Shown in pieces: positions 6,745 to 61,822 of a stretch of 64,000 nucleotides of DNA. The notes beneath the pieces were generated by a model. The model did no database searches. It was not told the origin of the DNA and saw only the letters and a list, made by a program, of their open reading frames with translations. Location of the stretch: assembly GCA_027082775.1 (NCBI GenBank), contig JALWUI010000063.1, positions 4,975 to 68,974 of the forward strand. Direction: 5' to 3'. Both the position numbers and the translations under genes were made by a program. Position 1 is the first letter of the stretch, and the number at the start of each line of letters is the position of its first letter. The DNA is from Candidatus Kapaibacterium sp. (GTDB lineage Bacteria > Bacteroidota > Ignavibacteria > Kapaibacteriales > WFXC01).

Positions 6745-7135
6745 GTGTACACTTCTTGCCGGCTAAAGCCGGCGTTCCAGTTACTGGGAGCGCACACTTC
6801 AGTGTGCCTGGGAGCGCACGCTTCAGCGTGCATTCCCCTCACCCTAACCCTTTCCCAGAGGAAGAGGGGATTTCTTGCACCCGTAGGGGTGACCGGCTGG
6901 TCGTCCACCGGGCAAAGCACTGCTTCGCCCCGAGCATTGCACTGGGAGCGCACGCTTCCGTGTGCATCTTTGCCGACAAAAGTCGGTGCTCCCGGTGTTC
7001 GTACTCCCTCGCCCACAGGGAGAGAGGGAGGAGGTGGGGCCTTTGGCTGAACATCGCGCTTTCCCTTTCGCGCACTCCCATGGGGAGAGAGGCAGAAGGT
7101 GAGAGTGGGTATTTTTCATCTCTGTCACCTGGCGA
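6745..7135. repeat. Hairpin-array repeat cluster A (composite GC-rich palindromic units)
   Basis: Units such as CCGGCTAAAGCCGG, GCACGCTTCAGCGTGC, CCCCTC..GAGGGG, GCGACCGGCTGGTCGC and GGGCAAAGCACTGCTTCGCCC. It shares a ~150-nt module with cluster B. Confidence 0.7.
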
Positions 7136-7470
7136 TACAGATTTTTTTAGCACTACTTCTGTCAGTTGGGATACTTCGTTTGTCCAGTATCGGATAACTG
7201 TGAAACCTTTTGCTTCCAGAAAAGCGGTACGTTCTTCATCGTAGATTTTGTGTTGTGGCTCGGCGTGGTGACCGCCATCAATTTCGATGATGAGGCGTAA
7301 TTTCGTGGGAGTAGAAATCCACGATGTATGGACCAATTAGGATGCTGACGACGAAACTTGATTCCTAATAACTGATGGTTTCGGAGCAAATGCCATATTA
7401 AGTTTTCAGCATTACTTTGGTTCGTGCGAAGCGCACGGGCATAGGCAAGGAGCTTAGGGGGAGTTTTTCC
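7136..7470 (-). pseudogene. DUF559 (Vsr-like endonuclease domain) gene remnant, frameshifted; 3' end runs into the repeat cluster
   Basis: One frame (7162..7743) carries the N-terminal half (LLAYARALRTNQSNAENLIWHLLRNHQLLGIKFRRQHP). A second frame (6839..7336) carries the C-terminal half (LIIEIDGGHH...ERTAFLEAKGFTVIRYWTNEV). The junction lies near 7336. Confidence 0.55.
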
Positions 7471-8216
7471 CTCACCCCTAATTTCTCTCTCCAGGGGGAG
7501 CGGGAAATTTTGTCGATGGAGGTTTCGCGATAGTAGGCGGCACGCTTGGCGAACTTCTCGGGGATAGAATTGCCCGCTCGCAGGGCGTTGATCACCACGG
7601 GATCGAAGTCCACGAACCAGGACTTGAACAGTGCCTGCGCCATCGCCTCCAGCGTTTCGTTCATCCGCCGATTCAGCTCGATTTTGTCGTCCAGCGTGCC
7701 CAGAATGCGCGCAATGGCGCGTTGTTCGGGAAGGGGAGGACATCGGAACTTAAATTTTTTAATGCGATCTGGTGAAGTGTGTTTAACAGTTGTTCCAGTA
7801 GCTATTGCAAGAATTTGATGACGGTATTTTTCTGAGCACATCAAATAAAATAGAAAACGGATATCGATTATGTTTGGCTCTTTGATAACGATTTTGCCAA
7901 GCCGCTGGTTGTGAAGGTAGCGATGATTATCGCCTGAAGCTGGCACAAAAGCGGGAAGTCCCAAGATATCACCTTGTTTGCTCAAGTCCGTCATTGCGAC
8001 TATCAGGTCACCTTCTGTTAATACAAAGTCCTTTGGTACTGGCCCCTCATAATATTTCAATTTGTCATCTTTGAATCCCCCTCCAACTGCGAAGTTTCCT
8101 GGTGTAAGCAGGATATTGCCTGGTGGTTCGCTCCTGAAATATTTTCCTTTAAACGCATAGCCATGTTTGATGTCTATTACATCGCCCAGTGTTATTTCTT
8201 TCCATTCACTCCGCAT
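7398..8216 (-). CDS. hsdS: Type I restriction-modification specificity subunit HsdS (single target-recognition domain, half-size)
   Basis: One target-recognition domain followed by the conserved central HsdS helix region (LPEQRAIARILGTLDDKIELNRRMNETLEAMAQALFKSWFVDFDPV). There is no second TRD. Confidence 0.7.
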   Translation of the reverse strand: MRSEWKEITLGDVIDIKHGYAFKGKYFRSEPPGNILLTPGNFAVGGGFKDDKLKYYEGPVPKDFVLTEGDLIVAMTDLSKQGDILGLPAFVPASGDNHRYLHNQRLGKIVIKEPNIIDIRFLFYLMCSEKYRHQILAIATGTTVKHTSPDRIKKFKFRCPPLPEQRAIARILGTLDDKIELNRRMNETLEAMAQALFKSWFVDFDPVVINALRAGNSIPEKFAKRAAYYRETSIDKISRSPWREKLGVREKLPLSSLPMPVRFARTKVMLKT

Positions 8217-8264
8217 TACTCAGCACCTTCCACTTTTTAGTCAGTAACATAGCCGCGATTTTTA

Positions 8265-8753
8265 CTATCTCTCTAACACAAACCGGACCTTTTCCCGACG
8301 CAGCATTTCAAATGGAGTCATATGTCGAATTCCTAAACCGATGCAAACGTTCGGAAGTTTTACTTTCCGTCTGGTAGCTGCAGGAACTTCGTGTGTCACG
8401 AGCACGTAGTTCTGTGCCAGAGCATGTGCTACCAGGTAGTAGTCTGCTACCTGAAAGAAAGCGTTTATTGCGGCAAGATCGTAATTTTGAGTCATTACCC
8501 AACTGCTGACTTTACTGAATGCAGCGACAACCCATGTGTCAGGAGGAAGGAAAAAGTTTGCTTCACGCTGCTTTGCCCAGTCTGCCAGATCGTCATCGCC
8601 TGCGATTAACTCGTCCCTGACCTTTTCAATGCTGAAGACAAGTCCCTGAGCATTGGCAACGTCCAGCCAGTCCCAGAACGCCGGGCAAAAGTCAAAACCG
8701 TAATGGAGATTCTTTGCCTGGATGAAAACGTTCGAATCCAGTAGATACGCCAT
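8265..8753 (-). CDS. DUF4411-family PIN-like protein
   Basis: The N-terminus MAYLLDSNVFIQAKNLHYGFDFCPAFWDWL matches my recollection of the DUF4411 signature. The start ATG overlaps the stop of the upstream HTH-ImmA gene (ATGA). Confidence 0.6.
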   Translation of the reverse strand: MAYLLDSNVFIQAKNLHYGFDFCPAFWDWLDVANAQGLVFSIEKVRDELIAGDDDLADWAKQREANFFLPPDTWVVAAFSKVSSWVMTQNYDLAAINAFFQVADYYLVAHALAQNYVLVTHEVPAATRRKVKLPNVCIGLGIRHMTPFEMLRREKVRFVLER

Positions 8754-9904
8754 TATCCGATTCCCAGCTCTTGCGCGAATTTCTTGAGGGTTTGAGTCTT
8801 CAGAATGCCTAACATCGTATAAGCGTCCCGAAATAGCGTCTGTCCTTCCAGCGTACTGCTGACCAATGCCAGAGCAAAACGCTTGCTGACTTTGCGAGCG
8901 AGATTATAGTAGAAGTTCCCACCTTTGTTTCCAGCTAATGTCTGCTTATAGCTTTTTACCCGCTTTTGCTCCTCTTCATACACTTGCCGGTAGGCTTCCC
9001 GGCTCAGGAGCTCTGCGTCGAACAACCGTCTGAGAATCACCAGTGTGCTGACCTTGAATATGCGAGCCAGGCGTTGCAATTCCTGTCGTAAGTCATTTTT
9101 GGTGTTGAAATTTTCTACTAATGTAGTGATGGGCACCAGCAGCTCTGCTGCTACCTGGTTGCACCAGCGTTCCACGGTTTCTTCCGGATATCTCTCAAGA
9201 CTGGCATCCGATATTCCCGATTTGCCCAGCCAGATATGCGCCAGTTCGTGAGCCAGCGTGAAGGTTTTACCGGCAATAGTGTCAGCTCCATTGATAAAAA
9301 TCACCGGTGCTAAGGCGTCTACCAGAGCGAAACCGCGGAACTCTTCCGGATCCAGAGGGCGATGGGTATTGTTCCCCACCACACCATTCATCATTACCAG
9401 AATACCAGCCTCTTCTACCCGATCGATAAAGTAACTGAGCGCTTGCGTCCAGGTGGGAATGGCACGCCGTTTCTCAATCTCCAGATTGATCCGATCGCGG
9501 ATGGTAGCTGCGATGACACTTGCGTCGTCCGCTACGGTCGCTGACCCGACAAACGGCAGCGGTGTTGCTCCTTGAGCCAGCAGGTAATCGCGATACCACT
9601 CTTGCCGTTGCTGGCAAATATAAATGGTTTCCAGCAGCTCCGGGCTGGGGCGGGAAAGTCTTGCCTGAGGCATGGTACGAAAGTCCGGGATGGGCAATGG
9701 TTCCTCCGGTGGCGCTTCCAGGAAGAAAAAACCCAGCGGTACTCGAAAGGTTTTTGCCAGCCGCTCCAGTTGTTTCAAGGTCGGTTGACTTTTCCCGCTT
9801 TCCCATTCCTCATATCGTGGAAATGTTTTCGTGAGCGCATCTATCGTACCCTCAGCACGTTCTCTGGCCCATCGGAGGAGTTCCGGTTTAATGGTGACCC
9901 GCAT
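8753..9904 (-). CDS. XRE-family HTH fused to an ImmA/IrrE-family (COG2856) zinc metallopeptidase
   Basis: N-terminal HTH region (TLKQLERLAKTFRVPLGFFF); HEXXH motif within TLAHELAHIWLGKSGISD. Confidence 0.75.
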   Translation of the reverse strand: MRVTIKPELLRWARERAEGTIDALTKTFPRYEEWESGKSQPTLKQLERLAKTFRVPLGFFFLEAPPEEPLPIPDFRTMPQARLSRPSPELLETIYICQQRQEWYRDYLLAQGATPLPFVGSATVADDASVIAATIRDRINLEIEKRRAIPTWTQALSYFIDRVEEAGILVMMNGVVGNNTHRPLDPEEFRGFALVDALAPVIFINGADTIAGKTFTLAHELAHIWLGKSGISDASLERYPEETVERWCNQVAAELLVPITTLVENFNTKNDLRQELQRLARIFKVSTLVILRRLFDAELLSREAYRQVYEEEQKRVKSYKQTLAGNKGGNFYYNLARKVSKRFALALVSSTLEGQTLFRDAYTMLGILKTQTLKKFAQELGIG

Positions 9905-9989
9905 AGCACTTTTGCTGTTCTTTGTTTCCCATCTCCAATAGATCTGTGTCTTGATTCAGCTACACGCTTCGCCGGGAAGCTGCTGACTC

Positions 9990-10073
9990 GCTTGGCACAT
10001 AAGCGTTATTCAACGAACGTTTAATAACGCGCTGGCTTATTCAACGAAAAGGGCGTTTCGTTTAATAAGATGG
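9990..10073. promoter_or_regulatory. Direct-repeat element upstream of the HTH-ImmA gene (candidate operator)
   Basis: Two copies of TTATTCAACGAA...CGTTTAATAA lie 36 bp apart in the hsdM-ImmA intergenic region. Confidence 0.3.
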
Positions 10074-11627
10074 CTATTTCCCATACCCCAACACCTGTAG
10101 GTTCTTGCGAATTTCTGCTTCCAGCCGGCGACTTTCTTCGAACTGCTCATAGAGCTGTGCGGTCAACGCTGCCATCTTCTGCTCGAAGGGGACATCGTCG
10201 TCTTCTTTTTCCTCCACACCCACGTAACGTCCTGGCGTAAGGACGTAATCGTGTTTGCGGATGTCCTCGATGGTAGCTGACTTCCACCAGCCGGGTTTGT
10301 CTTCGTAACCCTTACCTCGCTTCCAGGCGTGGTACACGTCGGCGATCTGGCGGATTTCCTCCTGCGTGAGTTCCCGGTGCGTGCGGTCGACCAGCCGTCC
10401 CATTCGGCGGGCGTCGATGAAGAGCGTCTCGCCGGTGCGGTCGCGCCAGCCGCGCCTCGGATTGCTTTTCTTGGTGCGGGTAATGAACCAGAGGCAGGCG
10501 GGGATCGGCGTGGTGTAGAAGAGTTGCCCCGGCAGGGCAACGATACACTCTATCAAATCATCTTCGATGATTCCTTTGCAGATGGCAAATTCTGCTTTGG
10601 TGGAAGTGGATAGCGAACCATTCGCCATCACAAAGCCGGCTGTGCCGTTCGGAGCCAGGTGGTAGATGAAATGCTGGATCCAGGCGTAGTTCGCATTGCC
10701 CGCCGGTGGAACCCCGTACTTCCATCGAGGATCTTCCCGCAGCCGCTCACCGCCCCAATGACTCATATTGAACGGTGGATTGGCGAGAATGTAGTCGGCT
10801 CTGAGGTCTTTGTGCAGGTCGTTCAGGAAAGTGTCTGCCGGGTGTGGACCAAGATCTGCCTCGATGCGGCGAATTGCCAGATTCATTTTTGCCAGTCGCC
10901 AGGTGGTCGGGTTGGATTCCTGCCCATAAATAGCAATGTCACCAAGTTTGCCGCCGTGCGCTTCTACAAAGCGTTCTGACTGGATGAACATCCCGCCGGA
11001 GCCGCAACAGGGGTCATAGACTCTTCCCCGATAGGGCTCGATCATTTCGACCAGCAACTGCACCACACACTGAGGCGTATAGAACTCGCCTCCACCTTTG
11101 CCTTCAGCAGCCGCGAATCGACCTAAGAAGTACTCGTACACCCGTCCCAGTGGATCTTTGACTCCATACTCGCGGGCACGCAGGTCGATGTCCCCCACCA
11201 GCTTGACCAGCTCTCCCAGCCGGATTTTGTCCAGCGTTGGACGAGCGTAATTTTTAGGTAGCACGCCTTTGAGTGGCGGGTTTTCACGTTCGATCGCTTC
11301 CATTGCCTGATCAATTACCTGCCCAATCTCAGGTTGTGGCGCAGCCGCCTGAATTCGGTCCCAGCGTGCCTCTGGCGGTACCCAGAATACATTTGCCGCC
11401 AGATATTCGTCGCGGTCCTCTGGATCAGCATATTCCGTCTCTTGCAGTGCTTTCAGTTCCTCGTATTTCTTCTGAAACGCATCGGAGATGTACTTCAGAA
11501 AGATCAGCCCCAGCACCGTATGTTTGTACTCGGCTGCGTCCATATGGCCCCGCAATCGGTCAGCCATTTCCCAGAGTTTCTTTTCAAACCCCAAAGTTGC
11601 TCCGTTGGTCTGGATATCACTCATCAT
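10074..11627 (-). CDS. hsdM: Type I restriction-modification N6-adenine DNA methyltransferase subunit HsdM
   Basis: HsdM N-terminal domain, AdoMet motif DPCCGSGGM, and catalytic motif NPPFN. Confidence 0.9.
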
Positions 11628-11794
11628 CGATCCTCCGATGGGTTTTGTTCAGATTCAGTGTTCCCCAATTCGATTGCGTAAACAGTAAATCCACGATGCA
11701 GTGAGAAAAGCATTGCTTGTATGCTGAAAAGCTGCTGGGGTGAGCGTTCATCTGAAGAAAGGAAGACTTCCAGCAGGGAAGTTGCCCGTTTGCC

Positions 11795-12035
11795 GGGGGC
11801 GCACGCTTCAGCGTACATTCCCCTCACCCTAACCCTTTCCCAGAGGAAGAGGGGATTTCTTGCACCCGTAGGGGCGACCGGCTGGTCGCTCACCGGGCGA
11901 AGCACCACTTCGCCCCTACCATTGCACCGGGAGCGCACACTTCAGTGTGCACTTCCGATCCTTCTGCCGGCGAAAGCCGGCGCTTCCAGTTGTTGCCAGC
12001 AAGAGCTGGCGCTTTTCGCGCTTTTTCGTTGTAGA
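11795..12035. repeat. Hairpin-array repeat cluster B
   Basis: Positions 11796-11945 are about 93% identical to 6810-6960 of cluster A in the same orientation. Additional hairpins: GCACACTTCAGTGTGC, CCGGCGAAAGCCGG. Confidence 0.7.
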
Positions 12036-12094
12036 GGAGAGCACGGGCTGGGTGCGGGGGAGTTCGCCGCTGGTGATTCGGGCGGTTACCTGCC

Positions 12095-12811
12095 TTACTC
12101 TGACTGTTCCTGCTGGAACCGGAGATAATCGATGGTTGCTCGGACGTGGGCGAAGATGCTGCGCCACATTGCGTCGGTGAGGCGTCCGGTGAGGGTGTTC
12201 TGCTGGCTCGGATGGTAGGAGCCGATGAGGTAGTACGTGTCGAGTTGTACCGTTGCCCCGTGGTGGAACCGGGGTTTCGGTCTGGGAATGGGAACGTCGA
12301 AGGAGCGGAGCAGCTGCAGGCTGGTTTCCCACGCTATGCCGCCTAAGGCAAGAAGAACGCGGACGTTGGGTAGCAGTGAGAACTCTGCCCGGAGATACTC
12401 GAAACAGTTCTGGCGTTCTTCGCGCGTCGGCAGGTTGTTGGGGGGTACACACCGGACCGCGGCAGTGATGTAGCAATTGCTGAGCGTCAGCCCATCGTCG
12501 CGGGAAATGGATTCCGGCTGGGAGGCAAAGCCGTATTCGAAGAGGGCGCGGTAGAGCCACTCTCCACTTCGGTCGCCGGTGAACATTCTGCCTGTCCGGT
12601 TTGCACCGTGGGCGCCGGGCGCTAAGCCGACAATGAGGAGCATTGCATTGGGATCACCAAAGCCGGGAACAGGCTTGCCCCAGTACTCCCAGTCCTGATA
12701 CTTGCGCCGCTTGACCGTTGCAACCTGCTGCCGCCATTGTACTAAGCGTGGGCATTTTGTGCACGCTACCAGTGAGGCATTGAGCGCTTCGAGCGAAATG
12801 AATTTTTTCAT
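12095..12811 (-). CDS. Uracil-DNA glycosylase superfamily protein (family 4/5-like, Fe-S type)
   Basis: CTKCPRL Fe-S cysteine motif and GLAPGAHGANRTGRMFTGD active-site region. Confidence 0.8.
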   Translation of the reverse strand: MKKFISLEALNASLVACTKCPRLVQWRQQVATVKRRKYQDWEYWGKPVPGFGDPNAMLLIVGLAPGAHGANRTGRMFTGDRSGEWLYRALFEYGFASQPESISRDDGLTLSNCYITAAVRCVPPNNLPTREERQNCFEYLRAEFSLLPNVRVLLALGGIAWETSLQLLRSFDVPIPRPKPRFHHGATVQLDTYYLIGSYHPSQQNTLTGRLTDAMWRSIFAHVRATIDYLRFQQEQSE

Positions 12812-15001: not shown

Positions 15002-15013
15002 CTCAATGCACCG

Positions 15014-29815: not shown

Positions 29816-29842
29816 GGAAATTTCGCCTCTCATCACGACCGG

Positions 29843-37925: not shown

Positions 37926-38014
37926 CTAAGCCAGCGGTTTGCTCTACTATTTATATCCTGTCGTCGAAAGCTGGTGCTCCGGTTTACTCTTCTTCCTGAG
38001 CACAGAAACTCCGA

Positions 38015-42659: not shown

Positions 42660-42819
42660 CAGTGCCGCCGGGGGCACAATACCCCCGGTGGTGGAATTCA
42701 GTCCCCGGCGTTTCCGGACATTTCGCGCAGGCTTGCACCACAGATAAGGAATAAGCGCCTACGCCAGTCGGCATCACCTCCGGCTCCACGCGCATACTTA
42801 CCAAAAACCGGCTATGTTC

Positions 42820-47956: not shown

Positions 47957-48017
47957 CGTACAGCTCCTTTTATTTTTTCCAACACTGTTTTCAGACAGGA
48001 TATTGAAGACTGCCGGG

Positions 48018-48340: not shown

Positions 48341-48447
48341 GGGTATGCTCCCGATAGATGCGCCCCAAGGGCGTGCTCTCATCTGAATTCACCCTGGAAT
48401 GTCCACTGTTCATCATAAGGGATCCTATCGCTATTGAGCCCAGTACA

Positions 48448-51375
48448 CTACCGGCGCACGAAAAACGGCTGGACTACCGTTGTGGTTCCATACCGGAACT
48501 GGCACACATACATCCCATTGCTCAGCATCGGGAGTACTGGCTGGAAGCAGCGCTGTCTTATGTCCACGTGCTGTTTCCAGAGCAATCGCATTTGTGCATC
48601 GTAGATCGATACGGTCGCTGTGCCGCTGCTTTGCGGTAGCACACTCCAGCAGATGGTAAAGCGCCCATCGTTGACTGAAGGATTGATAGAAAGGTCAAAA
48701 GCTGGGTAATCTCGATGCTCTGCCACTTCTGCTGGCGTCTCTGCGCGCTGAAGCGGAACATACCACAGCCCCGGATGGTACGTTGTGGCGGGATCATCCC
48801 ACTGCGCCTTTGCTGGGAAAAGTTCTACGACACAGGAAGAATCAGTAACAGGCACCAGCACATCATTTGCTTTGCCATCCAATCCGATCAGATGAATCTG
48901 ATCATCATTCGGTGTCCAGCCAGCAATCGCCGCTCGACGGCGTATGCGCCTATCCCAGGACAACTGGTAGATCCGGGTTTGGTAGCTCCGATCGTTGTTT
49001 TCCATTGTATCGATACGGATCAGACACCAGAGTCCCGAAGCAGTCAGCGCCTGCGGCACAATCCACCACTCTGCTTCTACTGGTTCAGGAAAACTCCATT
49101 GCCGGATGACACGCCGGGTTGTGAGATCATAAGCCGTTATGGTGTGGATCTTTTCATTTGGAGCCAGACCGACAATTTCCGTCCAGACCAGGGTGTTGCC
49201 GAAAAGGCGAGCGCGGTGAATCGCCGCCGAAGGAGCTTGACTAACAATTCGCTGCTCTGTCCGGGATCGGTAATCAAAGACAACCAGCGTGTCCGGCTTG
49301 TCAACTCGCCCCGTATCCGGTAAGCGCCATACTACCCGACCTTTTTGATGGTCGAGAATATCGTAGAACCGGGCATCAGCGATGGGATGGTTCCATTCTG
49401 CTAACACGGTATAGGGATGATTGGGTCCCCATACAACTATTTGCACCGAATCACTGCCCCGGTAACTTCGTCGCCACGCCATCACGCTGCCATCCAGATG
49501 GAAATCCTCATTGGTCCAGAGCGTAAAGGTGGGGCGAAGGGCAAGGGATTGAATCGATCGGGTATCGACATCGCCGACATAGAGCGTATCTCTATACTCA
49601 TCGGTCCACCAGATTCGCCGGTTGGCAACGCCGAGCAAGTGGAGGCGGGAGGGGAAGGCGGTATGCGGTTCCCACTGCCACCCATACCGGAGCCGGTCAT
49701 CTTCATAGTTGATGAAAGCAGCAGTCGAATCCTGTACCCATCCTGGCAGTTGCTTCACCTGGTGGTCGCTGACAACCCACGCGATACCGGTGTTACCAGC
49801 AACGACATCGCCAAGTGTCAGCGCTCGTTGCGGTGGGTTGATACTGTAAGCATTGACCGTATCATAGAGCACGCCGGCAAACAACAGCGATTGCACCTTC
49901 CAGTTCCGAAGGTCCGCTCGGTAAAGCAGACAGAAAATGTCATCACCCCGCGTTGGAACAACGCTGGCGAACCGTGCATTCCCCCACAAAAGAGCTACAT
50001 TCTGTGCATTGCTGCCGAACAATGCGCCATTCCCCAGAAAATGTGCTGAATCCAGACTTCGGCTCTGGAGTTTACAATCGTACAGTTTCTTTGTGCCAAG
50101 ATTGACCACAACATAGCTACACATCACATCCGATGGAGTCAGTGAGGGTTCGGTCAACGCAATGCCAATGACTTTTTTCGGTACGGTGTGCAACACCTGC
50201 TTTACCACCACCGAATCCTGGCGTTCCAGAAAACGGAGAATTCGGGCAGCAGCACTGAAGTCCACGTATGCAGCTTCGTATTCTGACAAAAGCGCGATGT
50301 CCGTTGAGTCAAACTCAGTTTCGTAAGCCGAAAATGATTTGTCAGCAAACGGTCGGCGCTTGAGCTGATACTGAAATCCCCATCGGGGATCCACATTCCG
50401 ATCTTGTACCCAGAGGGCGATCCAGAAATCCCGGACCAGCTCAACGAACGAGCGATCGGCACCCACCTGCCGGAGTGCAGAATCAATCCCGGCTCTGCCG
50501 GATAGCGGATTCTGCACAAGGTATCGTAAGAGTGTATCGCCGTACTGTTCCAGACAGTACTTGTAGAACAGCGCTGCTCGCCCGTAGGTTATTTCCGCAT
50601 CTTCTCTTGAAAAATCGGCAAACTGGAGAATTCCTCTTCGCTTGTAAGCTGGAAGCGCTGTCACGAAAGAGTTCACAAACTCATCCCACTGAAAGCCACA
50701 AATATATTCTCCCATCTGCGCCCGTCCTTCTAAGCTGAAGCGTTCTTCTTGCGGATCATATCGATGTTCGATCAGGTGAACCAGTTCGTGGGCAGCCGTG
50801 CCTGCGATTTCAGCAACGGTTCCGGTGCCAAAATTTCGCCAGTTCAGGTAGAGAATATTGCCCTTATTGCTTTTGTCAGTGTCCTTTTGATCCATCGGGC
50901 TGAACCATCCACGCGCAGCGTAGTTGACGTCTGTAACAAGATAGTGGACTGTATCAGCATTGCCCTGTGGGAATTGATTGGGTACAGTCCCAACCCATTG
51001 GTGCAGGAGCGTTCCAATTCCCAGATTGGGATTTTTTGATCCGTCAGGAGTTTGATTCGCCAGGAAATTGAGCAACGTGTCGACTTTCGGTTGAACAGCC
51101 GCATTGCCGGAGAGTGCTGTGTCGATCCATAGCTTGAAAGGGAAGCCACTGTACCCTGTCCGGAAAAGCTGAAAAGTGCGCCGCTGACGGAAGGATTGGG
51201 TAGTATCCACAGGATCCTGAACATCCACGTAGAAATTCCTCAGGGGACCATCCAAAACTTCCTGAATAAACTCAACCGGTTGCTGATATGCCTTCGAAAA
51301 GAAGGCAGGTTCTTGAGCAAAGCTGCTGATCGCGATCAGCAGTGCCAGTGTAATAACACCTTTAGGGATTCCCAT
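48448..51375 (-). CDS. 975-aa secreted putative zinc metalloprotease (HExxH) with T9SS C-terminal sorting domain
   Basis: Signal peptide MGIPKGVITLALLIAISSFAQEP; motif TAAHELVHLIEH; C-terminal CTD (MYVCQFRYGTTTVVQPFFVRR). Confidence 0.55.
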   Translation of the reverse strand: MGIPKGVITLALLIAISSFAQEPAFFSKAYQQPVEFIQEVLDGPLRNFYVDVQDPVDTTQSFRQRRTFQLFRTGYSGFPFKLWIDTALSGNAAVQPKVDTLLNFLANQTPDGSKNPNLGIGTLLHQWVGTVPNQFPQGNADTVHYLVTDVNYAARGWFSPMDQKDTDKSNKGNILYLNWRNFGTGTVAEIAGTAAHELVHLIEHRYDPQEERFSLEGRAQMGEYICGFQWDEFVNSFVTALPAYKRRGILQFADFSREDAEITYGRAALFYKYCLEQYGDTLLRYLVQNPLSGRAGIDSALRQVGADRSFVELVRDFWIALWVQDRNVDPRWGFQYQLKRRPFADKSFSAYETEFDSTDIALLSEYEAAYVDFSAAARILRFLERQDSVVVKQVLHTVPKKVIGIALTEPSLTPSDVMCSYVVVNLGTKKLYDCKLQSRSLDSAHFLGNGALFGSNAQNVALLWGNARFASVVPTRGDDIFCLLYRADLRNWKVQSLLFAGVLYDTVNAYSINPPQRALTLGDVVAGNTGIAWVVSDHQVKQLPGWVQDSTAAFINYEDDRLRYGWQWEPHTAFPSRLHLLGVANRRIWWTDEYRDTLYVGDVDTRSIQSLALRPTFTLWTNEDFHLDGSVMAWRRSYRGSDSVQIVVWGPNHPYTVLAEWNHPIADARFYDILDHQKGRVVWRLPDTGRVDKPDTLVVFDYRSRTEQRIVSQAPSAAIHRARLFGNTLVWTEIVGLAPNEKIHTITAYDLTTRRVIRQWSFPEPVEAEWWIVPQALTASGLWCLIRIDTMENNDRSYQTRIYQLSWDRRIRRRAAIAGWTPNDDQIHLIGLDGKANDVLVPVTDSSCVVELFPAKAQWDDPATTYHPGLWYVPLQRAETPAEVAEHRDYPAFDLSINPSVNDGRFTICWSVLPQSSGTATVSIYDAQMRLLWKQHVDIRQRCFQPVLPMLSNGMYVCQFRYGTTTVVQPFFVRR

Positions 51376-51694
51376 CTTTCATCCCTCCTGTTCTGTTGCA
51401 TTGCCCCATATTCAGTGCCCGGACTCGAAGGGCTCTTTTTTATCGTTTGTTCATTCCCCGAATTCTCTTTCAGGTCTTGACGCCTAACTCTTCCAGCATC
51501 AGAAATGCTGACCGGTGAATCTACCGCATTTTCGGATCCGAGCAAATTTACGTCGAAATTCCTTCCCAGCAAGGGAAAATTTTTGCAAATGTCCCGCAGG
51601 GGACAGGTGTTGATGATGATTCCTGCCGGGAAGCAAAGGAACGCTGGGTTTGAGGGTTCCCATAATTGACATTCCCCAAGTGTGGACACAATAC

Positions 51695-51762
51695 TGCAAA
51701 TTCACGCTACTTGCTGCCCGAATGCAATAGTGCTTTTCCCAACAAATGTTATTGTTTCAGCA
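51695..51762 (-). promoter_or_regulatory. Conserved upstream motif plus -33/-7-like promoter (copy 3), about 320 nt upstream of the HExxH protein gene
   Basis: Gene-sense sequence ...AACATTTGTTGGGAAAAGCACTATTGCATTCGGGCAGCAAGTAGCGTGAATTTG. A weaker related block lies at about 51545-51600. Confidence 0.4.
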
Positions 51763-51806: not shown

Positions 51807-53387
51807 CTACTGCGGCACCAGCTCGTGCCATTGAAGGAATTTCAATGCTGGCATTCGTCCGCTGCTTTCTTTCCACTGCTGCTGCCGCTTCTGTTGATAA
51901 TACTCCGTGATTGATATCCCCTGCACCTTGGCTTCCAGCCAGGTAACCAGGTCAAACTCGATCGATTCTCGTGCCAAAGCCTCTGAAAAGATGCGATAGA
52001 TGCGCTGGTAGAACGGCTGCTCCTCCGGCAGTCGATGTGCTGCAAAGGTGCTCGGCATCCGCTCTACTATACGTCGCACTGCACGTACCACCGGAACAAA
52101 AGCTGGATACTGCCGGACGAACCGGCGAAGACGCTCCAGTAACCGTTCCAACGCCTCAATGTCCTGCTGCTCCCAGGCAATGATGCATAAAAGGAGTCGG
52201 ACCACAAAGCCAATTTGCTGCAACAGTCGTTGCGAGGTATGATCGTAAGCGGCTTCCAGATACTGGCGGGCAAGGTCGTATTCCTGTAACCAGAAAGCGA
52301 TGCAGCCCAGGTGGTATAAAGCCACTTTGTAAAAATATGGATACTGTCGGCGATAGTGCTGCAGTATCTTTTCAACGTGCGACCGGTCATTGAAAATGTT
52401 GTCGAAGCTCCCTAATTCCAGAGCTAAATACAGGACGATGTTCAGATACAACATATCCATTTCGTTTTTGATTGCAGCATCCGATTGCTGCCGGAGCCGT
52501 ATAATTTCCGCAAAGCACCGCTCGACGATCGCTGCGTTTCGGGCTGCTGTTGCAGCAACGACCTGATTATGCAATGCACTGAAATATGCCGGTAAATAAA
52601 GGTGTTTTCGACTTTCGGCGATCTGGAAATACCGAAGAAGCTGTTCATAGCATTGCACTGCTTTGTCCGGTTGTCCCTGTATGTTCCACAGCAGCGCTTC
52701 GGTGTTCCACCGCAGAAATGGGATGGGAAACGGGTCTGCTTCATAAGCAGGAATCTTCTGGAGTTGCTCGATAACCATAGGAGCAACTGTTGCAGCTTCG
52801 GAACTGGAAATCCGAATTTCTCCTTCAACGTACCACGAATACCATCGAGCATTTAACAGAAGCAATTGCACATATCGTTGAGTCTGGTCCAGGGCAGTCT
52901 GCAAGTGCTCGAAACTCTTACGTAATTCCTCGTGATCCAGCAGTTGGAGGTTTCGATGCAGATGGTACTCAAGCTGTAGCGCCATTGCTGCCAGCTTTTG
53001 AATAGGATCACCAGCGGTATCGGCTGAGCGATAGGTTTTTGCCACAGCCTTTAAAGCATCGCTATCCTGCCTCCACTCAAAAGCAAAGCGAGAAAGAACC
53101 AGATCAAACAATATAGTACTTTGTTTGTCCTGTTGCATTAGCACGTATGCTCCGATCTGCAATACCTTGGTGTACACTTTATGCCGCAGTGCTCGAAGAT
53201 CTGTCTGAATTCCTTGCTGCTGGAGCGCAGAGCGCAACTGTTGATCGTCCCATTCTGGGTACTGCTCCAGAAGACTCAGAAAAGACTTTTCCACCTCCGT
53301 CAGTTGAATCCGTATTCCCTGCTTGATCCGCCTCCGCCACACTGGCGGCAAGGCGCGCAGGAGCTGATCCAGTTTGTGATCTGCCAT
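51807..53387 (-). CDS. Hypothetical all-alpha cytoplasmic protein, paralog 2
   Basis: Full-length similarity to 38015..39613. Start assigned to MADHKLDQLL by alignment with its paralog. A conserved element, CATAAA(T)TTAGCRAATTG, lies 35-45 nt upstream of both paralogs. Confidence 0.6.
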   Translation of the reverse strand: MADHKLDQLLRALPPVWRRRIKQGIRIQLTEVEKSFLSLLEQYPEWDDQQLRSALQQQGIQTDLRALRHKVYTKVLQIGAYVLMQQDKQSTILFDLVLSRFAFEWRQDSDALKAVAKTYRSADTAGDPIQKLAAMALQLEYHLHRNLQLLDHEELRKSFEHLQTALDQTQRYVQLLLLNARWYSWYVEGEIRISSSEAATVAPMVIEQLQKIPAYEADPFPIPFLRWNTEALLWNIQGQPDKAVQCYEQLLRYFQIAESRKHLYLPAYFSALHNQVVAATAARNAAIVERCFAEIIRLRQQSDAAIKNEMDMLYLNIVLYLALELGSFDNIFNDRSHVEKILQHYRRQYPYFYKVALYHLGCIAFWLQEYDLARQYLEAAYDHTSQRLLQQIGFVVRLLLCIIAWEQQDIEALERLLERLRRFVRQYPAFVPVVRAVRRIVERMPSTFAAHRLPEEQPFYQRIYRIFSEALARESIEFDLVTWLEAKVQGISITEYYQQKRQQQWKESSGRMPALKFLQWHELVPQ

Positions 53388-54012
53388 CACTTTTCTGTTG
53401 CTATCTGTCACAGACCCACCAGACATAAAATTAGCGAATTGAGTCCGAATAGTTGCTGCATTTTTCACGTGCTGAAAAGATGCACTCCTTTTTCTGCCAC
53501 ACTTTATTCAAACGGGAAGAAAACGGCAGAGGCTTTGTGCTCATTCCACCGCCCAGCGCAGAGAGCAGAGCAATGTCGAATCCTTCGAGGATAACACAAA
53601 AGGGACAAAGAATAAAAAGAAGCGAGCGTTGCTCGAAAGCGCGTCTTTGGTCTTCGGGTCTCAGAAACAAAGGACCCAGTATGTACGAGAGCGATCTACA
53701 ACGGTAGCTGGTGCAACCAGTAGCTCAGGCTCCATAAAGAACCAATCCTCTGGCAGTAGCACCACCGGGCTTGTTCCTCGACGGGAAAACACCTGCCGAT
53801 TTCGCAGGATCAGCGTGATCAGATCTTTTCATTTTTCGACCCAACTACCCGTGACCACCCCATCGCTGTATGTGCTGGAATGCGGAGTCGGGGAATACTG
53901 AGGCGATGCTGCTGGCGTTCCTCAGACATCAATGGAATCCCATTGCAAATGCCCTGCTGTATTGGAAGTCAGGAGCTTTGGAGGTTTGATTCAACCAGCA
54001 CCCGTACTGGAG

Positions 54013-58668: not shown

Positions 58669-58737
58669 TGCTCAGCTCCTTTTGATTGAACACCTTAACT
58701 GAACAACAGTCTCTCCTTATTGCTGAATTCAACTTAC

Positions 58738-58800
58738 TGCAAATTTAAGCTGCTCGCTACCCGAATGCAAGAGCATTTTTTCCAAAATGTCACTGGAGAA
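58738..58800 (-). promoter_or_regulatory. Conserved upstream motif plus Bacteroidetes-type -33/-7 promoter (copy 2) for the Gly-rich lipoprotein gene
   Basis: Gene-sense sequence TTCTCCAGTGACATTTTGGAAAAAATGCTCTTGCATTCGGGTAGCGAGCAGCTTAAATTTG, with TTG-N20-TAAATTTG. Confidence 0.5.
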
Positions 58801-59056: not shown

Positions 59057-59467
59057 GGGGAATCTGCAATTGAGATGGTCCACTTCCATTGCTGCTGGCT
59101 GCTTTGTGCTGGCGAAGTGTTAGCCGGATGAGCGGAAACGCTGCGTCGTATTGGCACTGCCGCTCCCTTTGTGGCAGTGTAGAGGAGTCGGCGCGTAATC
59201 TGCTCCTTTTTCTGCGCAATATTTGCCTGCCCTTTGTGCTGGTGTAGGGGAGTCGGCGCCGGGATAGGCACTGCTTGGGGAAACTGTCAGAGATACAGCA
59301 CGGGTGTGCTGTGGCTGCTGGACAGCGGGCGGTGTATGGTGTCGGCGCGTGGGTGGAGCAAAAATTGCGATTCTACACATTGATGACGGTGGCGCGTCTT
59401 CTGAATGTGCTCCGTTGCTTTCCGATTGGCAGGAGTTTTTGCCCGGTGTCAGCGCATCCTGGCGGTC

Positions 59468-61399
59468 TTAGAATTCCTGGAGTAAGAAGGTACGGTATCC
59501 TCGGGGAGAACGGTAGAGGATAACCGTGTAGGCACGCCCGCGGAGTGCGAAGAGATTTTCCAGCCGGGTGTAACGCTCTTCCGTTTCGGGATGCCAGAAT
59601 ACCAGAGTGGTTCGCCGCTCTCGCGGTAGCTGGATGAATTCGCTGTGTTCGCCAAAGGGAAGTGCTGTCAGCAGGAGATCCCCGTGCAGGGAATCGAGCG
59701 ACACATTGACCTCAGCAATGCCGTCTGCTAAGTGAAACAGACGGATTGCTGGATGCTCTACGCTTTTCGGTAGCTGGTAGAAAAGTGCGGTGACGAAGGA
59801 GGAGTCGTTGACGGGAGCAATCAATACTGCCGCTCGCTGCTCCGGTGTTCCCTGAAATGTAACAGGACGTTGATCAACTTCCACTGTTCCTGCATCCAGT
59901 GGCAACACAGTGGAAAGCTCGCTTTCAGCCGGCATTGTGAGCTGAGTAAACACGGGCGCTGCGGACAGCACGATGGGCTGGTTTTGCAAATTGACAACCC
60001 GGAGAAATCGACCGGTGGGCAATGGAGTGAGCTCAGTTTGCTCCTGACCCTGCGGCAACAGTACCATCTGAAGCTGCGCATTGCGATGCAGGACGACACC
60101 CAGATAGGAACGCTGCTGGAGGGTGGCGATGACGCCCTGGACAAAACGGTTTGCAGAATCCGGATGAAAGAAGGCAAGGGGAAAAACACCGGGAGACACG
60201 GGGACGGGCGATGATACAGTGCCAGTATGCCAGTTGTCTGCTAACACTTCACCACCTGCCAGCCGCCCGTCGGCAAGCTGTCGGGTGCCAGAAGCGGCAA
60301 GCAGGGAAGCATCGGATGTTGCATTGTACAACTGAATCACCGCCTGTCCAGCCGGTGGAGAGAGGGGATAGCTGTGCAGGAGCAATCGGATGCCACCGGT
60401 ATCCGCCGTTGCAACCAGCACATATTCCTTCTGCACTTCAAATTGTGCCGGGATTTTCCACACGCCCGAACCAGCGGTAACGGTCAGCGTGTCCTGCTCC
60501 ACACTTCGACAGGCTTCGATCGATACGGGCAATGATCGCTGCCACGGTGCTACGGCAGAGGCAATGGGCGTTTCGTTCAACTGGACGGCGATCGGATCTG
60601 TTGTTAAATTGGCAATGGTAAGTGTTGCTGTGAGCTCTGTTGTGGGCTCTGCAAGCTGCCACGCTGCAGCAGACTGCTGCTCGTTCAGAACTCCCAACTG
60701 CCACTGTCCCTGCGGATTCCGGAAGAGAATGAGGGTAAAGCTGAACGGTGCAGCAGTAGTGATGCGGACAAATTGCAAAACGGAATCCTGCTGCTGACGT
60801 CGACGCAGGACGCTCAGCACAAGATCGCCTGGCGGACGCTCCACAAAATTGGAAATTCGGGCATAGGGGACAAAGCCAAAAGTTGGATGTGCAGAAGGGC
60901 ATCCAACTGCGATGCCATACAGAGCGGAATCGGGAATAGCGTTCAGCAGGCGAATACCAACCTTAGAAACCGTTACCTCTGAAGGTGTGGGGAGCGCAAC
61001 CAGCGGTACGACTGTATCCCGTACTTTGCCGCCTTGCTCTATCTGGAGAACGACGAAGGTTGTGTACGTCCCTTTCCGCAGCACGACCGAATCCTGCCAG
61101 GTGGTATCCGTATCCGATCGGTGGATGCTTACAATCAGAGAATCAGCCGGTATTGCCCGGAGCGGTGAAAGTTGCGCATAGCCAACGTCGGCAATTGTGA
61201 GCAGATTGCCAATGGTGACACTCCGTACCTGGCGATCGGCGGCTAAATTCAGCACCCGGACAAATGCTGTGTCCGCTTGTAGCGGCTGGAGCAATGTGGG
61301 ATCTTCCTGAATCCAGCAGCCAGAGTTTCCAAGCAGTATTCCCAGCAATATCGCTATTCCGACCAGTAAGCCACTTCGCATCCTCTGCTCTCTTTTCAT
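59468..61399 (-). CDS. DUF4397-like repeat lipoprotein
   Basis: Lipobox LLGNSGC and repeated ..VR.vN...d...v.v modules (FVRVLNLAADRQV, IRLLNAIPDS, FLRVVNLQNQPIV). Confidence 0.5.
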   Translation of the reverse strand: MKREQRMRSGLLVGIAILLGILLGNSGCWIQEDPTLLQPLQADTAFVRVLNLAADRQVRSVTIGNLLTIADVGYAQLSPLRAIPADSLIVSIHRSDTDTTWQDSVVLRKGTYTTFVVLQIEQGGKVRDTVVPLVALPTPSEVTVSKVGIRLLNAIPDSALYGIAVGCPSAHPTFGFVPYARISNFVERPPGDLVLSVLRRRQQQDSVLQFVRITTAAPFSFTLILFRNPQGQWQLGVLNEQQSAAAWQLAEPTTELTATLTIANLTTDPIAVQLNETPIASAVAPWQRSLPVSIEACRSVEQDTLTVTAGSGVWKIPAQFEVQKEYVLVATADTGGIRLLLHSYPLSPPAGQAVIQLYNATSDASLLAASGTRQLADGRLAGGEVLADNWHTGTVSSPVPVSPGVFPLAFFHPDSANRFVQGVIATLQQRSYLGVVLHRNAQLQMVLLPQGQEQTELTPLPTGRFLRVVNLQNQPIVLSAAPVFTQLTMPAESELSTVLPLDAGTVEVDQRPVTFQGTPEQRAAVLIAPVNDSSFVTALFYQLPKSVEHPAIRLFHLADGIAEVNVSLDSLHGDLLLTALPFGEHSEFIQLPRERRTTLVFWHPETEERYTRLENLFALRGRAYTVILYRSPRGYRTFLLQEF

Positions 61400-61483
61400 C
61401 CGCAATACCCGTGTTGACGAATAACTCCGGGTTTGTATCCACTCTTTGCGGTAAAGGACACAGATAAAGCAAACCACTGGCTT

Positions 61484-61822
61484 GCCCGGACAACCCGGAG
61501 GGTTGTTCTACCAACGATGAAGCTCCACTGAAGCACGCATTTCCAGTAAACCGTAGGGGCGAATGCTGAGAGCGCCGACTTCCGCCGGCAAAGGTTAAAA
61601 CACCGTGTAGGGGCGAAGCGATGCTTCGCCCGGCGGGCGACCAGCCGGGTCGTCCCTACGCGTATGTGGCGACCAGCCGGGTCGCTGCTGCTGGGAGCGC
61701 TGGCTTTCGCCGGCAAAAATGCACCCTAAAGGGTGCGCTCCCAGTAAACGCACGCTGAAGCGTGCGCTCCCAGTAAATCCTACCCGAAGTGCCGACTGGA
61801 AGCGCCGACTTTAGCCGGGCAA
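61484..61822. repeat. Hairpin-array repeat cluster H (inverted orientation)
   Basis: Units GGACAACCCGGAGGGTTGTTC, GGGGCGAAGCGATGCTTCGCCC, GCGACCAGCCGGGTCG (2 copies), GCACCCTAAAGGGTGC, GCACGCTGAAGCGTGC, CCGACTGGAAGCGCCGACTTTAGCCGG. Confidence 0.75.

Follow-up and report, generated by a model that had tools for sequence, protein, structure and literature searches.

Results

The window analyzed here, a 64-kb stretch of Candidatus Kapaibacterium DNA, contains eight intergenic clusters that combine three kinds of repeat (R1, R2/R3, and M4) and together make up about 4% of its length. The motifs listed in the original prediction were recovered in these clusters far above chance: GCACGCTTCAGCGTGC with up to two mismatches gave 17 matches in the window compared to 0.05 expected from shuffle controls, and CCGGCTAAAGCCGG with up to one mismatch gave 10 compared to 0.01. 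Seven repeat families (D2, D4, D5, and D8 to D11) are common to the clusters and join them together. The unit census comprised 25 R1A and 16 R1B units (41 R1 units, or about one per 1.6 kb), at least 10 GTAG-footed repetitive extragenic palindromes (REPs), and 6 M4 motifs, and it confirmed that both orientations are present. All units of the window census lie in the eight intergenic clusters, and no true unit was found within genes. What had been described as a shared vocabulary of hairpins is a composite, intergenic, palindromic repeat system, yet not a loose one, as it consists of 22- to 25-nt units that follow a strict orientation grammar. The hairpin units also carry a conserved 5′ foot (CTGGGAGC or GTAG) that was absent from the initial description. 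The recurring peptide reported for the open reading frames (ORFs) of the arrays is real and corresponds to a translated B-type unit; its form is LPAKAGAP, with M at the first position when TTG is read as a start.

Cluster 1 (6745 to 7110) lies between a tRNA-Met gene (6617 to 6691, +) and the 3′ end of a gene at 7162 to 7743 (−). It begins with a degenerate R1B(−) (6757 to 6779), two R1A(+) units (6786 to 6807 and 6810 to 6831), and an M4/BoxC motif (6836 to 6868), continues with a degenerate GTAG REP pair (6878 to 6929), an R1A(+) (6944 to 6965), and an R1B(−) (6972 to 6993), and ends with two more BoxC-like C/G-rich motifs (approximately 7008 to 7110); its stretch from 6805 to 7000 was folded. 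Cluster 2 (11792 to 12012), between hsdM (10074 to 11627, −) and a UDG-family gene (12095 to 12811, −), has the order R1A(+), M4, a GTAG R2a(+)/R2b(−) inverted doublet (11868 to 11919), R1A(+), R1B(−), and a degenerate B-like hairpin. Its positions 11795 to 11951 are 92% identical to 6810 to 6966 of cluster 1, and a ~157-nt composite module (family D5) occurs three times. Cluster 3 (29838 to 30081), between an ABC ATPase gene (29015 to 29815, +) and a gene at 30288 to 34022 (+), comprises an R1A(+)/R1B(−) doublet, degenerate GTAG REPs, a degenerate R1A, M4 (30017 to 30049), and R1B(−).

Cluster 4 (34190 to 34445) separates the convergent genes 30288 to 34022 (+) and 34491 to 37265 (−) and consists of a 45-nt non-REP leader, two R1A(+) units, R1B(−), and a GTAG R2a(+) followed further on by R2b(−). 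The same leader opens cluster 5 (37435 to 37925, between the genes at 34491 to 37265 [−] and 38015 to 39613 [−]), where it precedes tandem R1A units and two 71-nt A(+)/B(−) doublet repeats; then come R1A, M4 (37696 to 37728), a GTAG doublet (37743 to 37794), an A/B doublet, R1A, and an R3 unit beginning with GTAGGACAACCC (37899 to 37922). A ~150-nt direct repeat, non-REP leader sequence included, lies on either side of the gene at 34491 to 37265 and points to recombination between arrays. Cluster 6 (42752 to 43308), the largest, lies between convergent genes (41319 to 42659, +, and 43549 to 44937, −). It contains R1A variants whose loop is 6 nt long (TCTTAG), R1B(−) units, M4 (42950 to 42982), a double-foot REP, GTAGGGGCGACCGGCCGGTCGCCCCTAC (43034 to 43061), three tandem R1A units, R1B(−), R1A, and R3 (43285 to 43308). 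Polarity is reversed relative to clusters 1 to 6 in cluster 7 (48015 to 48380, between genes at 45434 to 47956 [−] and 48448 to 51375 [−]), with R1B on the plus strand and R1A on the minus strand, along with a degenerate M4(−), an R3(−) (48298 to 48320), and degenerate units up to about 48380. Finally, cluster 8 (61478 to 61821), between a gene at 59468 to 61477 (−) and a thioesterase gene (61849 to 62283, −), has the order R3(−) (61488 to 61511), R1B(+), a GTAG R2b(+)/R2a(−) inverted doublet (61607 to 61659), R1B(+), two R1A(−) units, and R1B(+).

Each cluster adjoins the 3′ end of at least one gene, and arrays are absent from 7 of the 15 large intergenic spacers tallied from the window ORF list. 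No fixed relation between array polarity and transcription direction was detected; clusters 2 and 5 share their gene arrangement with clusters 7 and 8 but differ in array polarity. No gene-class association of the arrays was seen in the window. Among the four guesses made about their nature, recombination elements came nearest, and neither a dedicated structured RNA nor a terminator was supported. A covariance-model search of the window against Rfam returned only the tRNA-Met at gathering score, the best subthreshold matches scoring 25 bits (cutoff, 60) and 19 bits (cutoff, 100). The hairpins lack the T-tracts of intrinsic terminators, and 20 terminator-like sites were found in the window compared to 19.6 expected. 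R1 and R2 units are not among these 20 sites; those located in arrays are one M4 copy (30029 to 30049) and a non-REP hairpin (48273 to 48297).

To define the R1 unit, its segments were compared across copies. The unit comprises a foot (A-C-T-GGGAGC, ACTGGGAGC), a 6-bp stem (GC-NNN-C pairing with G-NNN-GC) closed by a TTYA loop, and a 3′ A. Foot, loop, and 3′ A are highly conserved while the stem varies, with covarying pairs at positions 3 to 5 (CG/AT, GC/CG, and AT/GC/CG). In the listed Kapaibacterium DNA, a 6-bp stem with at most one mismatch follows 252 of 669 exact GGGAGC sites (chance, about 0.5%), and 175 of these 252 foot-anchored units have perfect stems; in many units, there is a single mismatch or the foot is degenerate. 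R1 has the anatomy of a REP, an imperfect palindrome of 20 to 40 nt that has an unpaired conserved 5′ foot and whose stem is maintained by compensatory changes, and like REPs it is extragenic and present in high copy number. The canonical GT[AG]G foot was not found in R1, which has [CT][CT]GG instead. Two stem types exist, A (GCAC.C) and B (GCCG.C), with 348 A/B units among the listed Kapaibacterium loci (about 540 kb). In 66 of 67 clusters from these loci, A and B types occupy strictly opposite strands; the gap within A(+)B(−) doublets is 7 nt, and runs of tandem A and of tandem B also occur. The window follows the same grammar, with inverted doublets and clusters of alternating orientation as in BIMEs and REPINs. 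The A/B doublet is predicted to fold into a three-way junction (ΔG of −21.9 kcal/mol; z score of −6.7), and the period of tandemly duplicated doublets is about 71 nt.

R2/R3 form a minor family and are the only REPs of the window with a canonical foot. These GTAG units, GTAGGGGCGACC...GGTCGCCC and GTAGGGGCGAAGC...GCTTCGCCC, have a GGG/CCC stem base and include inverted doublets as well as one double-foot (GTAG...CTAC) unit, at 43034 to 43061. A GTAG foot, three G-C pairs at the stem base, and occasional double-foot units are the features reported for REP types of REP-associated tyrosine transposase (RAYT) subclass 2.4 (PMC6006769), and all three are found in R2/R3. The third repeat, M4, is a BoxC/PIT intrastrand-triplex motif, for which the published consensus is CCCTCNCCC N3-6 GGGNGAGGG N3 GGGNGAGGG or its complement (Holder 2015, PMC4666352); some Kapaibacterium copies carry one or two mismatches to it. 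The M4 core, CCCCTCACCCTAACCCTCTCCC...GGGAGAGGGGATT, shares 90 to 95% identity with the copies carried by 5417 of 5426 E. coli genomes, and M4 resembles these elements in its type-A TTA second loop, its intergenic location, and its association with local instability. Unlike E. coli BoxC, Kapaibacterium M4 is not free-standing: it is held at fixed spacing between R1A and an R1B or GTAG unit and is a long linker within R1 doublets. In Azospirillum and Xanthomonas, the BoxC-type motif stands alone.

Orthologous arrays were then compared in two related Candidatus Kapaibacterium MAGs (Bacteroidota), WFXC01 and JALWJX01, whose flanks are 89 to 97% identical to the window. The arrays differ by whole units, and both the number and the order of units vary freely from one close strain to another. 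For instance, the spacer orthologous to cluster 3 measures 284 nt in JALWJX01 and 770 nt in WFXC01 against 472 nt in the window; whole REP units account for these differences. The WFXC01 ortholog of cluster 7 lacks about 150 nt of REP units. All comparable orthologous sites in these two genomes already had arrays, and no de novo insertion was seen. Such unit-level indels could arise by recombination or slippage alone.

No transposase-like ORF was detected in the window, and searches by regular expression, tblastn, and profile HMM found no RAYT in the window or in 87 listed loci, in which Kapaibacterium DNA makes up about 540 kb; this absence is uninformative because these listed loci represent a minority of the relatives' genomes, estimated at roughly 15%. 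RAYT genes associated with R1-class hairpins were found in other phyla. A Planctomycetota locus (L045) encodes a 216-amino-acid protein whose gene has CTGGGAGCGCAGGCTTCAGCCTGCA on either side; the protein matches Pfam Y1_Tnp, scores 83.4 bits on NCBIfam REP_Tyr_transpos (cutoff, 80), and is distantly similar to E. coli TnpA-REP 4ER8 (E = 8e-5). Proteins of this clade are extended at the N terminus by about 100 residues (GWHSRGYLPHFD...) and have the motifs NHVH, WQ, and YIENNP, which fit the subclass 2.4 signature YIxNNP; candidate subclasses are 2.1 and 2.4. The same RAYT-plus-flanking-hairpin arrangement occurs in Pyrinomonadaceae (L088), with foot variants in Thermoanaerobaculia and Gemmataceae, and in a complete Vicinamibacteria chromosome, where the RAYT is accompanied by YYGGGAGC-foot hairpins in 6 direct and 11 inverted copies. 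A foot-plus-hairpin unit lies within 400 nt of the gene at 47 of the 80 RAYT loci from metagenomes, unit density is 2.14 per kb near these genes compared to 0.10 per kb farther away, and RAYT flanks hold 126 units compared to 4 in shuffled flanks. In the listed RAYT-flanking copies, the first foot base is always C or T. The RAYT clade and R1-class REPs co-occur across genomes.

Discussion

REP and BIME elements are well-known "junk" or mobile bacterial DNA. We consider it likely that the clusters are BIME-like REP arrays and that a RAYT with its gene at another genomic location copies, excises, and rearranges the REPs in trans. Such a RAYT is presumably present in this genome and would cleave at the foot. 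In this mechanism, the REPs would be non-autonomous single-stranded DNA hairpin elements on which an HUH/Y1 RAYT acts in trans, reading the folded single strand at its conserved 5′ foot and probably also at its loop, while the stem would need pairing only. The R1 foot is CTGGGAGC and not the classical GT[AG]GGAGC, and the A/B doublet is predicted to fold with a foot helix closing its two hairpins. Doublets duplicate in tandem with the ~71-nt period, and the GTAG REP family and the BoxC/triplex motif are interleaved with R1. Arrays may build up 3′ of genes, at positions that tolerate insertion. Any influence on transcript 3′ ends or the topology of the DNA would be secondary. The original prediction was to fall if the family proved to be a well-characterized REP/BIME element with a known RAYT and no gene-class association. 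The REP/BIME anatomy, the RAYT link in other phyla, and the lack of gene-class association all agree with that identity; taken literally, the description does not apply, since the family is not well characterized in this lineage and the sampled Kapaibacterium DNA yielded no RAYT.

It is also conceivable, but rather doubtful, that the arrays are relics, seeded by a RAYT that has since disappeared from this lineage, and now persist and change only by homologous recombination, slippage during replication, and decay. The lack of a RAYT in the Kapaibacterium DNA examined, the mismatched or degenerate units, strain differences confined to gain or loss inside existing arrays, and the direct repeat around the gene at 34491 to 37265 would all be compatible with this scenario. 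However, long-term neutral decay is unlikely given the proportion of perfect stems and the high conservation of foot and loop, and the RAYT search covered a minority of the relatives' genomes. According to Bertels and colleagues, REPIN populations reportedly decay once the RAYT is lost.

A primary host function, such as mRNA 3′-end protection, termination or insulation, or binding of nucleoid or topology proteins, with mobility being incidental, seems unlikely. In E. coli, REPs stabilize the mRNA upstream of them and are bound by gyrase and IHF, and BIMEs are bound by gyrase, IHF, and Pol I. The location of every cluster just downstream of at least one gene, the stable hairpins, and the compensatory stem changes, which indicate selection on pairing, would suit such a role. 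Transposase recognition equally predicts selection on pairing, though, and the hairpins have neither T-tracts, enrichment in terminator-like sites, nor an RNA family match. Moreover, polarity differs at the same gene arrangement, copy number and order are free to vary between close strains, and 7 of the 15 large intergenic spacers have no array. MITEs derived by deletion from DDE-type insertion sequences, or another array type such as CRISPR, are highly improbable: although the arrays are intergenic and the D5 module recurs, the copies are mosaics of independent 22- to 33-nt units in variable order and both orientations, with irregular spacing, no terminal inverted repeats around a longer element, no target-site duplications, no regular unique spacers, and no cas domains or transposase-like ORF in the window.

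Returning to mobile REP arrays, a close parallel is the E. coli REP/BIME system (Y, Z1, and Z2; TnpA-REP, RAYT subclass 2.2), which shares GC-rich imperfect palindromes that are short and carry a conserved 5′ foot, strict alternation of two REP varieties in orientation, short and long linkers, tandemly amplified doublets, a mostly 3′ intergenic location, and a transposase gene flanked by its own REPs, the last seen for the R1 class in other phyla only. E. coli REPs differ in their GTAG foot, whereas R1 has CTGGGAGC and 6-bp stems with a fixed TTYA loop, and in their density, roughly one per 8 kb compared to one R1 unit per 1.6 kb in the window. The cognate RAYT is known in E. coli but was not seen in the sampled Kapaibacterium DNA, and TnpA-REP 4ER8 is only distant kin of the R1-class clade with its N-terminal extension.

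Comparison with the Pseudomonas and Xanthomonas REPs GTGGGAGC... and GTAGGAGCGCACC... (PMC2817692) places the R1 foot one base off the classical feet. These REPs and REPINs (RAYT group 3/subclass 2.5) share the GGGAGC/GGAGC part of a near-identical foot, inverted doublets, and high copy number, and the Xanthomonas unit also has GAGCGCAC in common with R1. Their foot differs at the first base only (G there, C or T in R1), a REPIN is one long hairpin whereas the R1 doublet is two different hairpins in a three-way junction, and the RAYT motifs are DH[LF]H and YI[VI]ANP rather than NHVH and YIENNP (PMC6006769). TIRYT/TIRtrons (Di Nocera 2013) and RAYT subclass 2.1 likewise involve RAYT-like genes of Acidobacteria and related phyla, with inverted G-rich flanking repeats bearing a GGG[AT][CG]-like motif and, in some cases, amplification in dimers or clusters (PMC3733652), but their TIR consensus is GGGGWSAS rather than YYGGGAGCGC plus a hairpin (PMC3733652). 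Subclass 2.1 has been reported to lack REPs (Quentin 2018). The published automated REP search targeted canonical REPs with a 5′ GT[AG]G foot (PMC6006769) and would presumably have missed an R1-type foot. The arrays are a known kind of element, seen here in an unstudied lineage, with a foot that is a one-base variant and with BoxC embedded in them.

REP units with a conserved foot make up the clusters

The motifs on which the original prediction was based occur in the window far more often than expected by chance: GCACGCTTCAGCGTGC was matched 17 times with up to 2 mismatches (0.05 expected) and CCGGCTAAAGCCGG 10 times with up to 1 mismatch (0.01 expected). De novo repeat finding recovered families of 25 to 160 nt that connect all eight clusters (6745-61821). 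The hairpins proposed to form a shared vocabulary do exist, but they resolve into units in which a conserved 5′ foot, previously unnoticed, precedes the hairpin. Units of the R1 kind consist of A-C-T-GGGAGC, a 6-bp stem of the form GC-NNN-C, a TTYA loop (occasionally replaced by TCTTAG), the complementary arm, and a trailing A. In a structure-blind test on 540 kb of lineage DNA, in which the anchor was exact GGGAGC only, 252 of the 669 sites preceded a 6-bp stem containing no more than one mismatch, compared to a chance level of about 0.5%. Foot, loop, and trailing A hardly vary in this DNA. Within the stem, pairs 1, 2, and 6 are constant and pairs 3 to 5 covary (CG/AT, GC/CG, AT/GC/CG). Two stem types are distinguished, GCAC[G/A/C]C (A) and GCCG[G/A]C (B). 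Type A lies on the plus strand and type B on the minus strand in clusters 1 to 6, with the reverse in clusters 7 and 8, and the two types were strictly on opposite strands in all but one of the 67 clusters of the lineage DNA holding both (66/67). Gaps measure 7 nt in A+B− pairs and about 21 nt in head-to-head pairs, and tandem runs of A and tandem runs of B also occur. On folding, an A/B doublet forms a foot helix closing two hairpins (dG of −21.9 kcal/mol, z of −6.7). This architecture is shared with the BIMEs of E. coli, with their Y and Z REPs of alternating orientation and their short and long linkers.

The R2 and R3 units are canonical GTAG-footed REPs, i.e., GTAGGGGCGACC-GGCT-GGTCGCCC, GTAGGGGCGAAGC-NNN-GCTTCGCCC, and GTAGGACAACCC-TCC-GGGTTGTCC, frequently arranged as inverted doublets and including a double-foot unit (GTAG...CTAC) at 43034-43061. 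Their stem base of three G-C pairs and their double foot are likewise features of the REPs of RAYT (REP-associated tyrosine transposase) subclass 2.4 (Quentin et al., PMC6006769). REPs, BIMEs, REPINs, and RAYTs have been described in detail (PMC2817692, PMC3116915, PMC3733652, PMC6006769), and the arrays are best explained as REP/BIME elements that combine BoxC linkers with two REP families, one with the variant foot and one with the canonical GTAG, previously undescribed in this lineage.

BoxC is embedded within REP doublets

The remaining module, M4 (CCCCTCACCCTAACCCTTTCCCAGAGGAAGAGGGG), is the BoxC/PIT/TM_ECO intrastrand-triplex motif described by Holder et al. in 2015 and already known to be widespread, in >260 prokaryotes (PMC4666352). 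Copies are located at 6836-6868, 11821-11853, 30017-30049, 37696-37728, 42950-42982, and, on the minus strand, 48141-48178. Of 5426 complete E. coli genomes, 5417 matched the 41-nt M4 consensus (about 90 to 95% identity; median of 18 sites each), as did replicons of Klebsiella, Aeromonas, Azospirillum, Sinorhizobium, and Xanthomonas. In the Kapaibacterium lineage, M4 was never free-standing: it follows an R1A unit by about 5 nt and precedes either an inverted R1B unit by about 8 nt or a GTAG unit by about 14 nt, and this fixed spacing therefore makes it the long linker. Such an embedding of BoxC inside REP doublets appears to be new. Among the loci that the genome and metagenome scans produced, including those with RAYT genes, none from outside Kapaibacterium had a BoxC. 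That BoxC is carried by R1-type REPs as a general rule was ruled out, since the Azospirillum and Xanthomonas copies stand alone. Among the E. coli loci (L172-L174), at phnE-phnD, similarity to the M4 of the window reaches about 16 nt upstream of the core (CATCAGCGTGCGCATTCCCCTCACCC in E. coli versus GCTTCAGCGTGCATTCCCCTCACCC in the window), so that the match enters what in the window is the 3′ arm of the R1A hairpin.

R1-type units flank transposase genes in other phyla

A scan of the genome collection with CTGGGAGCGCNNNCTTYAGNNNGCA yielded, among the matches listed, chiefly Kapaibacterium MAGs, plus several matches each to MAGs of Planctomycetota and Vicinamibacteria and single ones in other phyla that are possibly due to chance. 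One Planctomycetota locus (L045) comprises a 216-aa ORF with CTGGGAGCGCAGGCTTCAGCCTGCA units on both sides. Its product matches the Pfam Y1_Tnp domain and the NCBIfam REP-associated tyrosine transposase model (83.4 bits versus a cutoff of 80), aligns to E. coli TnpA-REP (4ER8), and has thousands of homologues, often annotated RayT by JGI. Members of this clade carry the motifs NHVH, WQ, and YIENNP and, at the N terminus, a GWHSRGYLPHFD extension roughly 100 aa long. Related arrangements surround RAYT genes elsewhere: inverted CTGGGAGCGCAGGCATCCTGCCTGCA at both sides of a Pyrinomonadaceae copy, the foot variants CCGGAGCGC and CTGGGACCGC at Gemmataceae and Thermoanaerobaculia copies, and, at a Vicinamibacteria-type metagenomic locus (L167), TTGGAACGC followed by GCCGGC-TTCA-GCCGGC and an A, with a hairpin identical to the Kapaibacterium B type. 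On a complete Vicinamibacteria chromosome, the RAYT gene has 6 direct GGGAGC-foot, TTCA-loop REPs on one side and 11 inverted ones on the other. A unit with a foot and a perfect stem was present within 400 nt of the gene at 41 of 80 metagenomic RAYT loci, or at 47 of them with one mismatch allowed. Unit density was 2.14 per kb near the gene versus 0.10 per kb farther away, and shuffled flanks gave 4 units versus 126 observed. The orientation and spacing of the REPs beside RAYT genes were variable. Because R1-type units flank RAYT genes in other phyla, R1 is the cognate REP class of the L045-type RAYT clade. By homology of the element and of its transposase partner in these phyla, a RAYT would process the single-stranded DNA of the arrays.

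This RAYT region of the complete Vicinamibacteria chromosome (OY821641; 1900-4080 of L175) is an extreme REPtron, with an 85-nt tandem repeat present six times upstream of the RAYT gene and an 80-nt tandem repeat present 11 times downstream, each repeat bearing one GGGAGC-foot, TTCA-loop REP; a called 288-aa ORF at 3115-3981, without a Pfam family, is composed of the downstream array. A 13.9-kb contig of 68% GC classed as viral (L178; IMGVR_UViG_3300009285_001952) also bears five R1-type units (ACTGGGAGCGCGGACTTCAGTCCGCA), dispersed along a single strand.

Neither the window nor the Kapaibacterium loci among the 87 genome-scan loci yielded a RAYT by HUH-motif regex, tblastn, or profile HMM, the Planctomycetota gene being the only one detected in the whole set. 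These loci cover a minority of Kapaibacterium genomes (e.g., 6 of the approximately 18 blocks of contig WFXC01000044), so that this absence says little. A weak tblastn match in one locus (L024) was ruled out as a RAYT, being a Macro-domain protein, and among the proteins retrieved with a Vicinamibacteria-type RAYT, none was named from Kapabacteria.

Genomic context and alternative functions

The window is syntenic with contigs of two Candidatus Kapaibacterium MAGs (WFXC01000044 and JALWJX01) at 88 to 97% identity. The genus belongs to the Bacteroidota, in the FCB group, and the T9SS sorting domains found in several window proteins are consistent with this placement. All true repeat units in the window are intergenic. 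The arrays, which amount to about 4% of the window and by extrapolation perhaps to some 2,000 units per genome, occupy 8 of the 15 intergenic spacers of at least 250 nt and each adjoin at least one gene 3′ end. Their flanking genes are functionally unrelated (tRNA-Met, type I R-M, UDG, ABC ATPase, Ig-like/T9SS, TPR proteins, and thioesterase).

The original prediction also entertained a role as terminators; the window held 20 terminator-like sites versus 19.6 expected, with no enrichment, and the REPs are without T-tracts. Clusters 2 and 5 have a polarity opposite to that of clusters 7 and 8 despite the same gene arrangement; the polarity of the arrays does not follow transcription. The structured-RNA candidate found no support, as no Rfam family matched the arrays in the window. 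Beside an R3 unit, at 48273-48297 on the minus strand, we noted an 11-bp hairpin, CAGGGCAAGCC-AGC-GGCTTGTCCTG, with a T-rich tail, and related GGCTTGCCC sequences adjoin R3 units at 61470-61490 and 37920-37945; the hairpin may be a genuine terminator of the gene at 48448-51375 or a further repeat module.

As proposed, spurious MPAKAGAP-type ORFs arise from the arrays. Many RAYT proteins in databases (ORFs P0046, P0063, P0070, P0098, P0114, P0118, and that of locus L159) have C- or N-terminal tails (e.g., RDAGAP, GTPALQG, AGVPPA) that look like flanking REPs translated via gene-caller read-through, the same artefact as in the window. A 1506-nt contig in an 'Aquificales' MAG (L013; JALWWX010000119.1) consists of nearly nothing other than Kapaibacterium-type R1 arrays (10 units) and is probably a mis-binned REP-array contig, an example of how such arrays may break MAG assemblies and cause mis-binning.

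Array turnover between relatives

Four orthologous spacers, those of clusters 3, 4, 7, and 8, were compared between the window and its two relatives. Although their flanks are 89 to 97% identical, the arrays differ by whole units. For cluster 3, the JALWJX01 spacer holds one A/B doublet and measures 284 nt, compared to 472 nt for the window and 770 nt for WFXC01, and similar unit-level gains and losses were seen for clusters 4, 7, and 8. None of these four comparisons revealed an insertion into an empty site, and the orthologue data thus fit RAYT action and recombination or slippage alike.

A direct repeat of about 150 nt (34187-34316 and 37430-37590) forms the left edges of clusters 4 and 5 and brackets the gene at 34491-37265. 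It comprises a 45-nt non-REP leader, no copy of which was present in any of the loci retrieved, followed by R1A/R1A/R1B. The bracketed gene encodes a 924-aa product with a T9SS sorting tail and shows 82% identity to its JALWJX01 orthologue, compared to 94% for neighbouring genes. The bracketing repeat together with this excess divergence suggests REP-mediated recombination or replacement of the gene.

Other features of the window

The region at 6617-12094 contains tRNA-Met, REP cluster 1, a DUF559 fragment, hsdS, a DUF4411/ImmA-IrrE+HTH pair, hsdM, and REP cluster 2; GC content falls to 0.495 at 8 to 10 kb, and the region is a possible genomic island. A 63-nt repeat (D19) lies directly upstream of three minus-strand gene 5′ ends (37306-37368, 51692-51754, and 58735-58797). 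On the gene strand it contains TAAATTTG, a putative promoter match that fits the Bacteroidetes −7 consensus, TAnnTTTG. The repeat families D1, D3, D6, D7, D12, and D17 correspond to coding sequence: 138-nt (46-aa) tandem repeats at 36424-37178 and 44038-44814, inside the genes at 34491-37265 and 43549-44937, and two paralogous TPR genes (38015-39613 and 51807-53468) of 71 to 76% nucleotide identity.

Relation to known REPs

Classical REP feet have the sequence GT[AG]G (PMC6006769). The foot of Pseudomonas and Xanthomonas units (GTGGGAGC... and GTAGGAGCGCACC...; PMC2817692) differs from the R1 foot, CTGGGAGC, only in the first base, which in R1 is consistently C or T, both here and at RAYT flanks. 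Using an automated search for canonical GT[AG]G-foot REPs, Quentin et al. reported that subclasses 2.1 and 2.3 yielded none and that the REPs of subclass 2.6 and of class 3 were atypical (PMC6006769). Surveys that sought this foot would therefore have missed YYGGGAGC-foot REPs. Di Nocera et al. reported that 'TIRYT' genes, an acidobacterial group included, have G-rich inverted repeats (consensus GGGGWSAS) on their flanks (PMC3733652); the supplements of that 2013 study do not contain the R1 motif. [quoted passage not shown]

We tentatively raise the possibility, which we consider rather doubtful at present, that R1 represents an unrecognised and phylogenetically broad REP superfamily with a YYGGGAGC foot, its own RAYT clade bearing the GWHSRGYLPHFD extension, and a BoxC linker captured in Kapabacteria. 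Such a superfamily may have a conserved TTYA loop in one sub-group and may extend over at least Acidobacteriota, Planctomycetota, and Kapabacteria (Bacteroidota), transposase homologues being named from Verrucomicrobiota too. To our knowledge, the origin of BoxC-like motifs has been unexplained since the 1990s. The presence of BoxC within REP doublets provides a lead on that origin, and their capture by such a superfamily would, if true, supply the first concrete means by which these motifs spread. The general picture of REPs is unchanged by these findings, which extend the REP/BIME architecture to Kapabacteria and show that the cognate REPs of a large RAYT clade, one common in Acidobacteriota and Planctomycetota from soil, have a foot one base off the canonical GT[AG]G.
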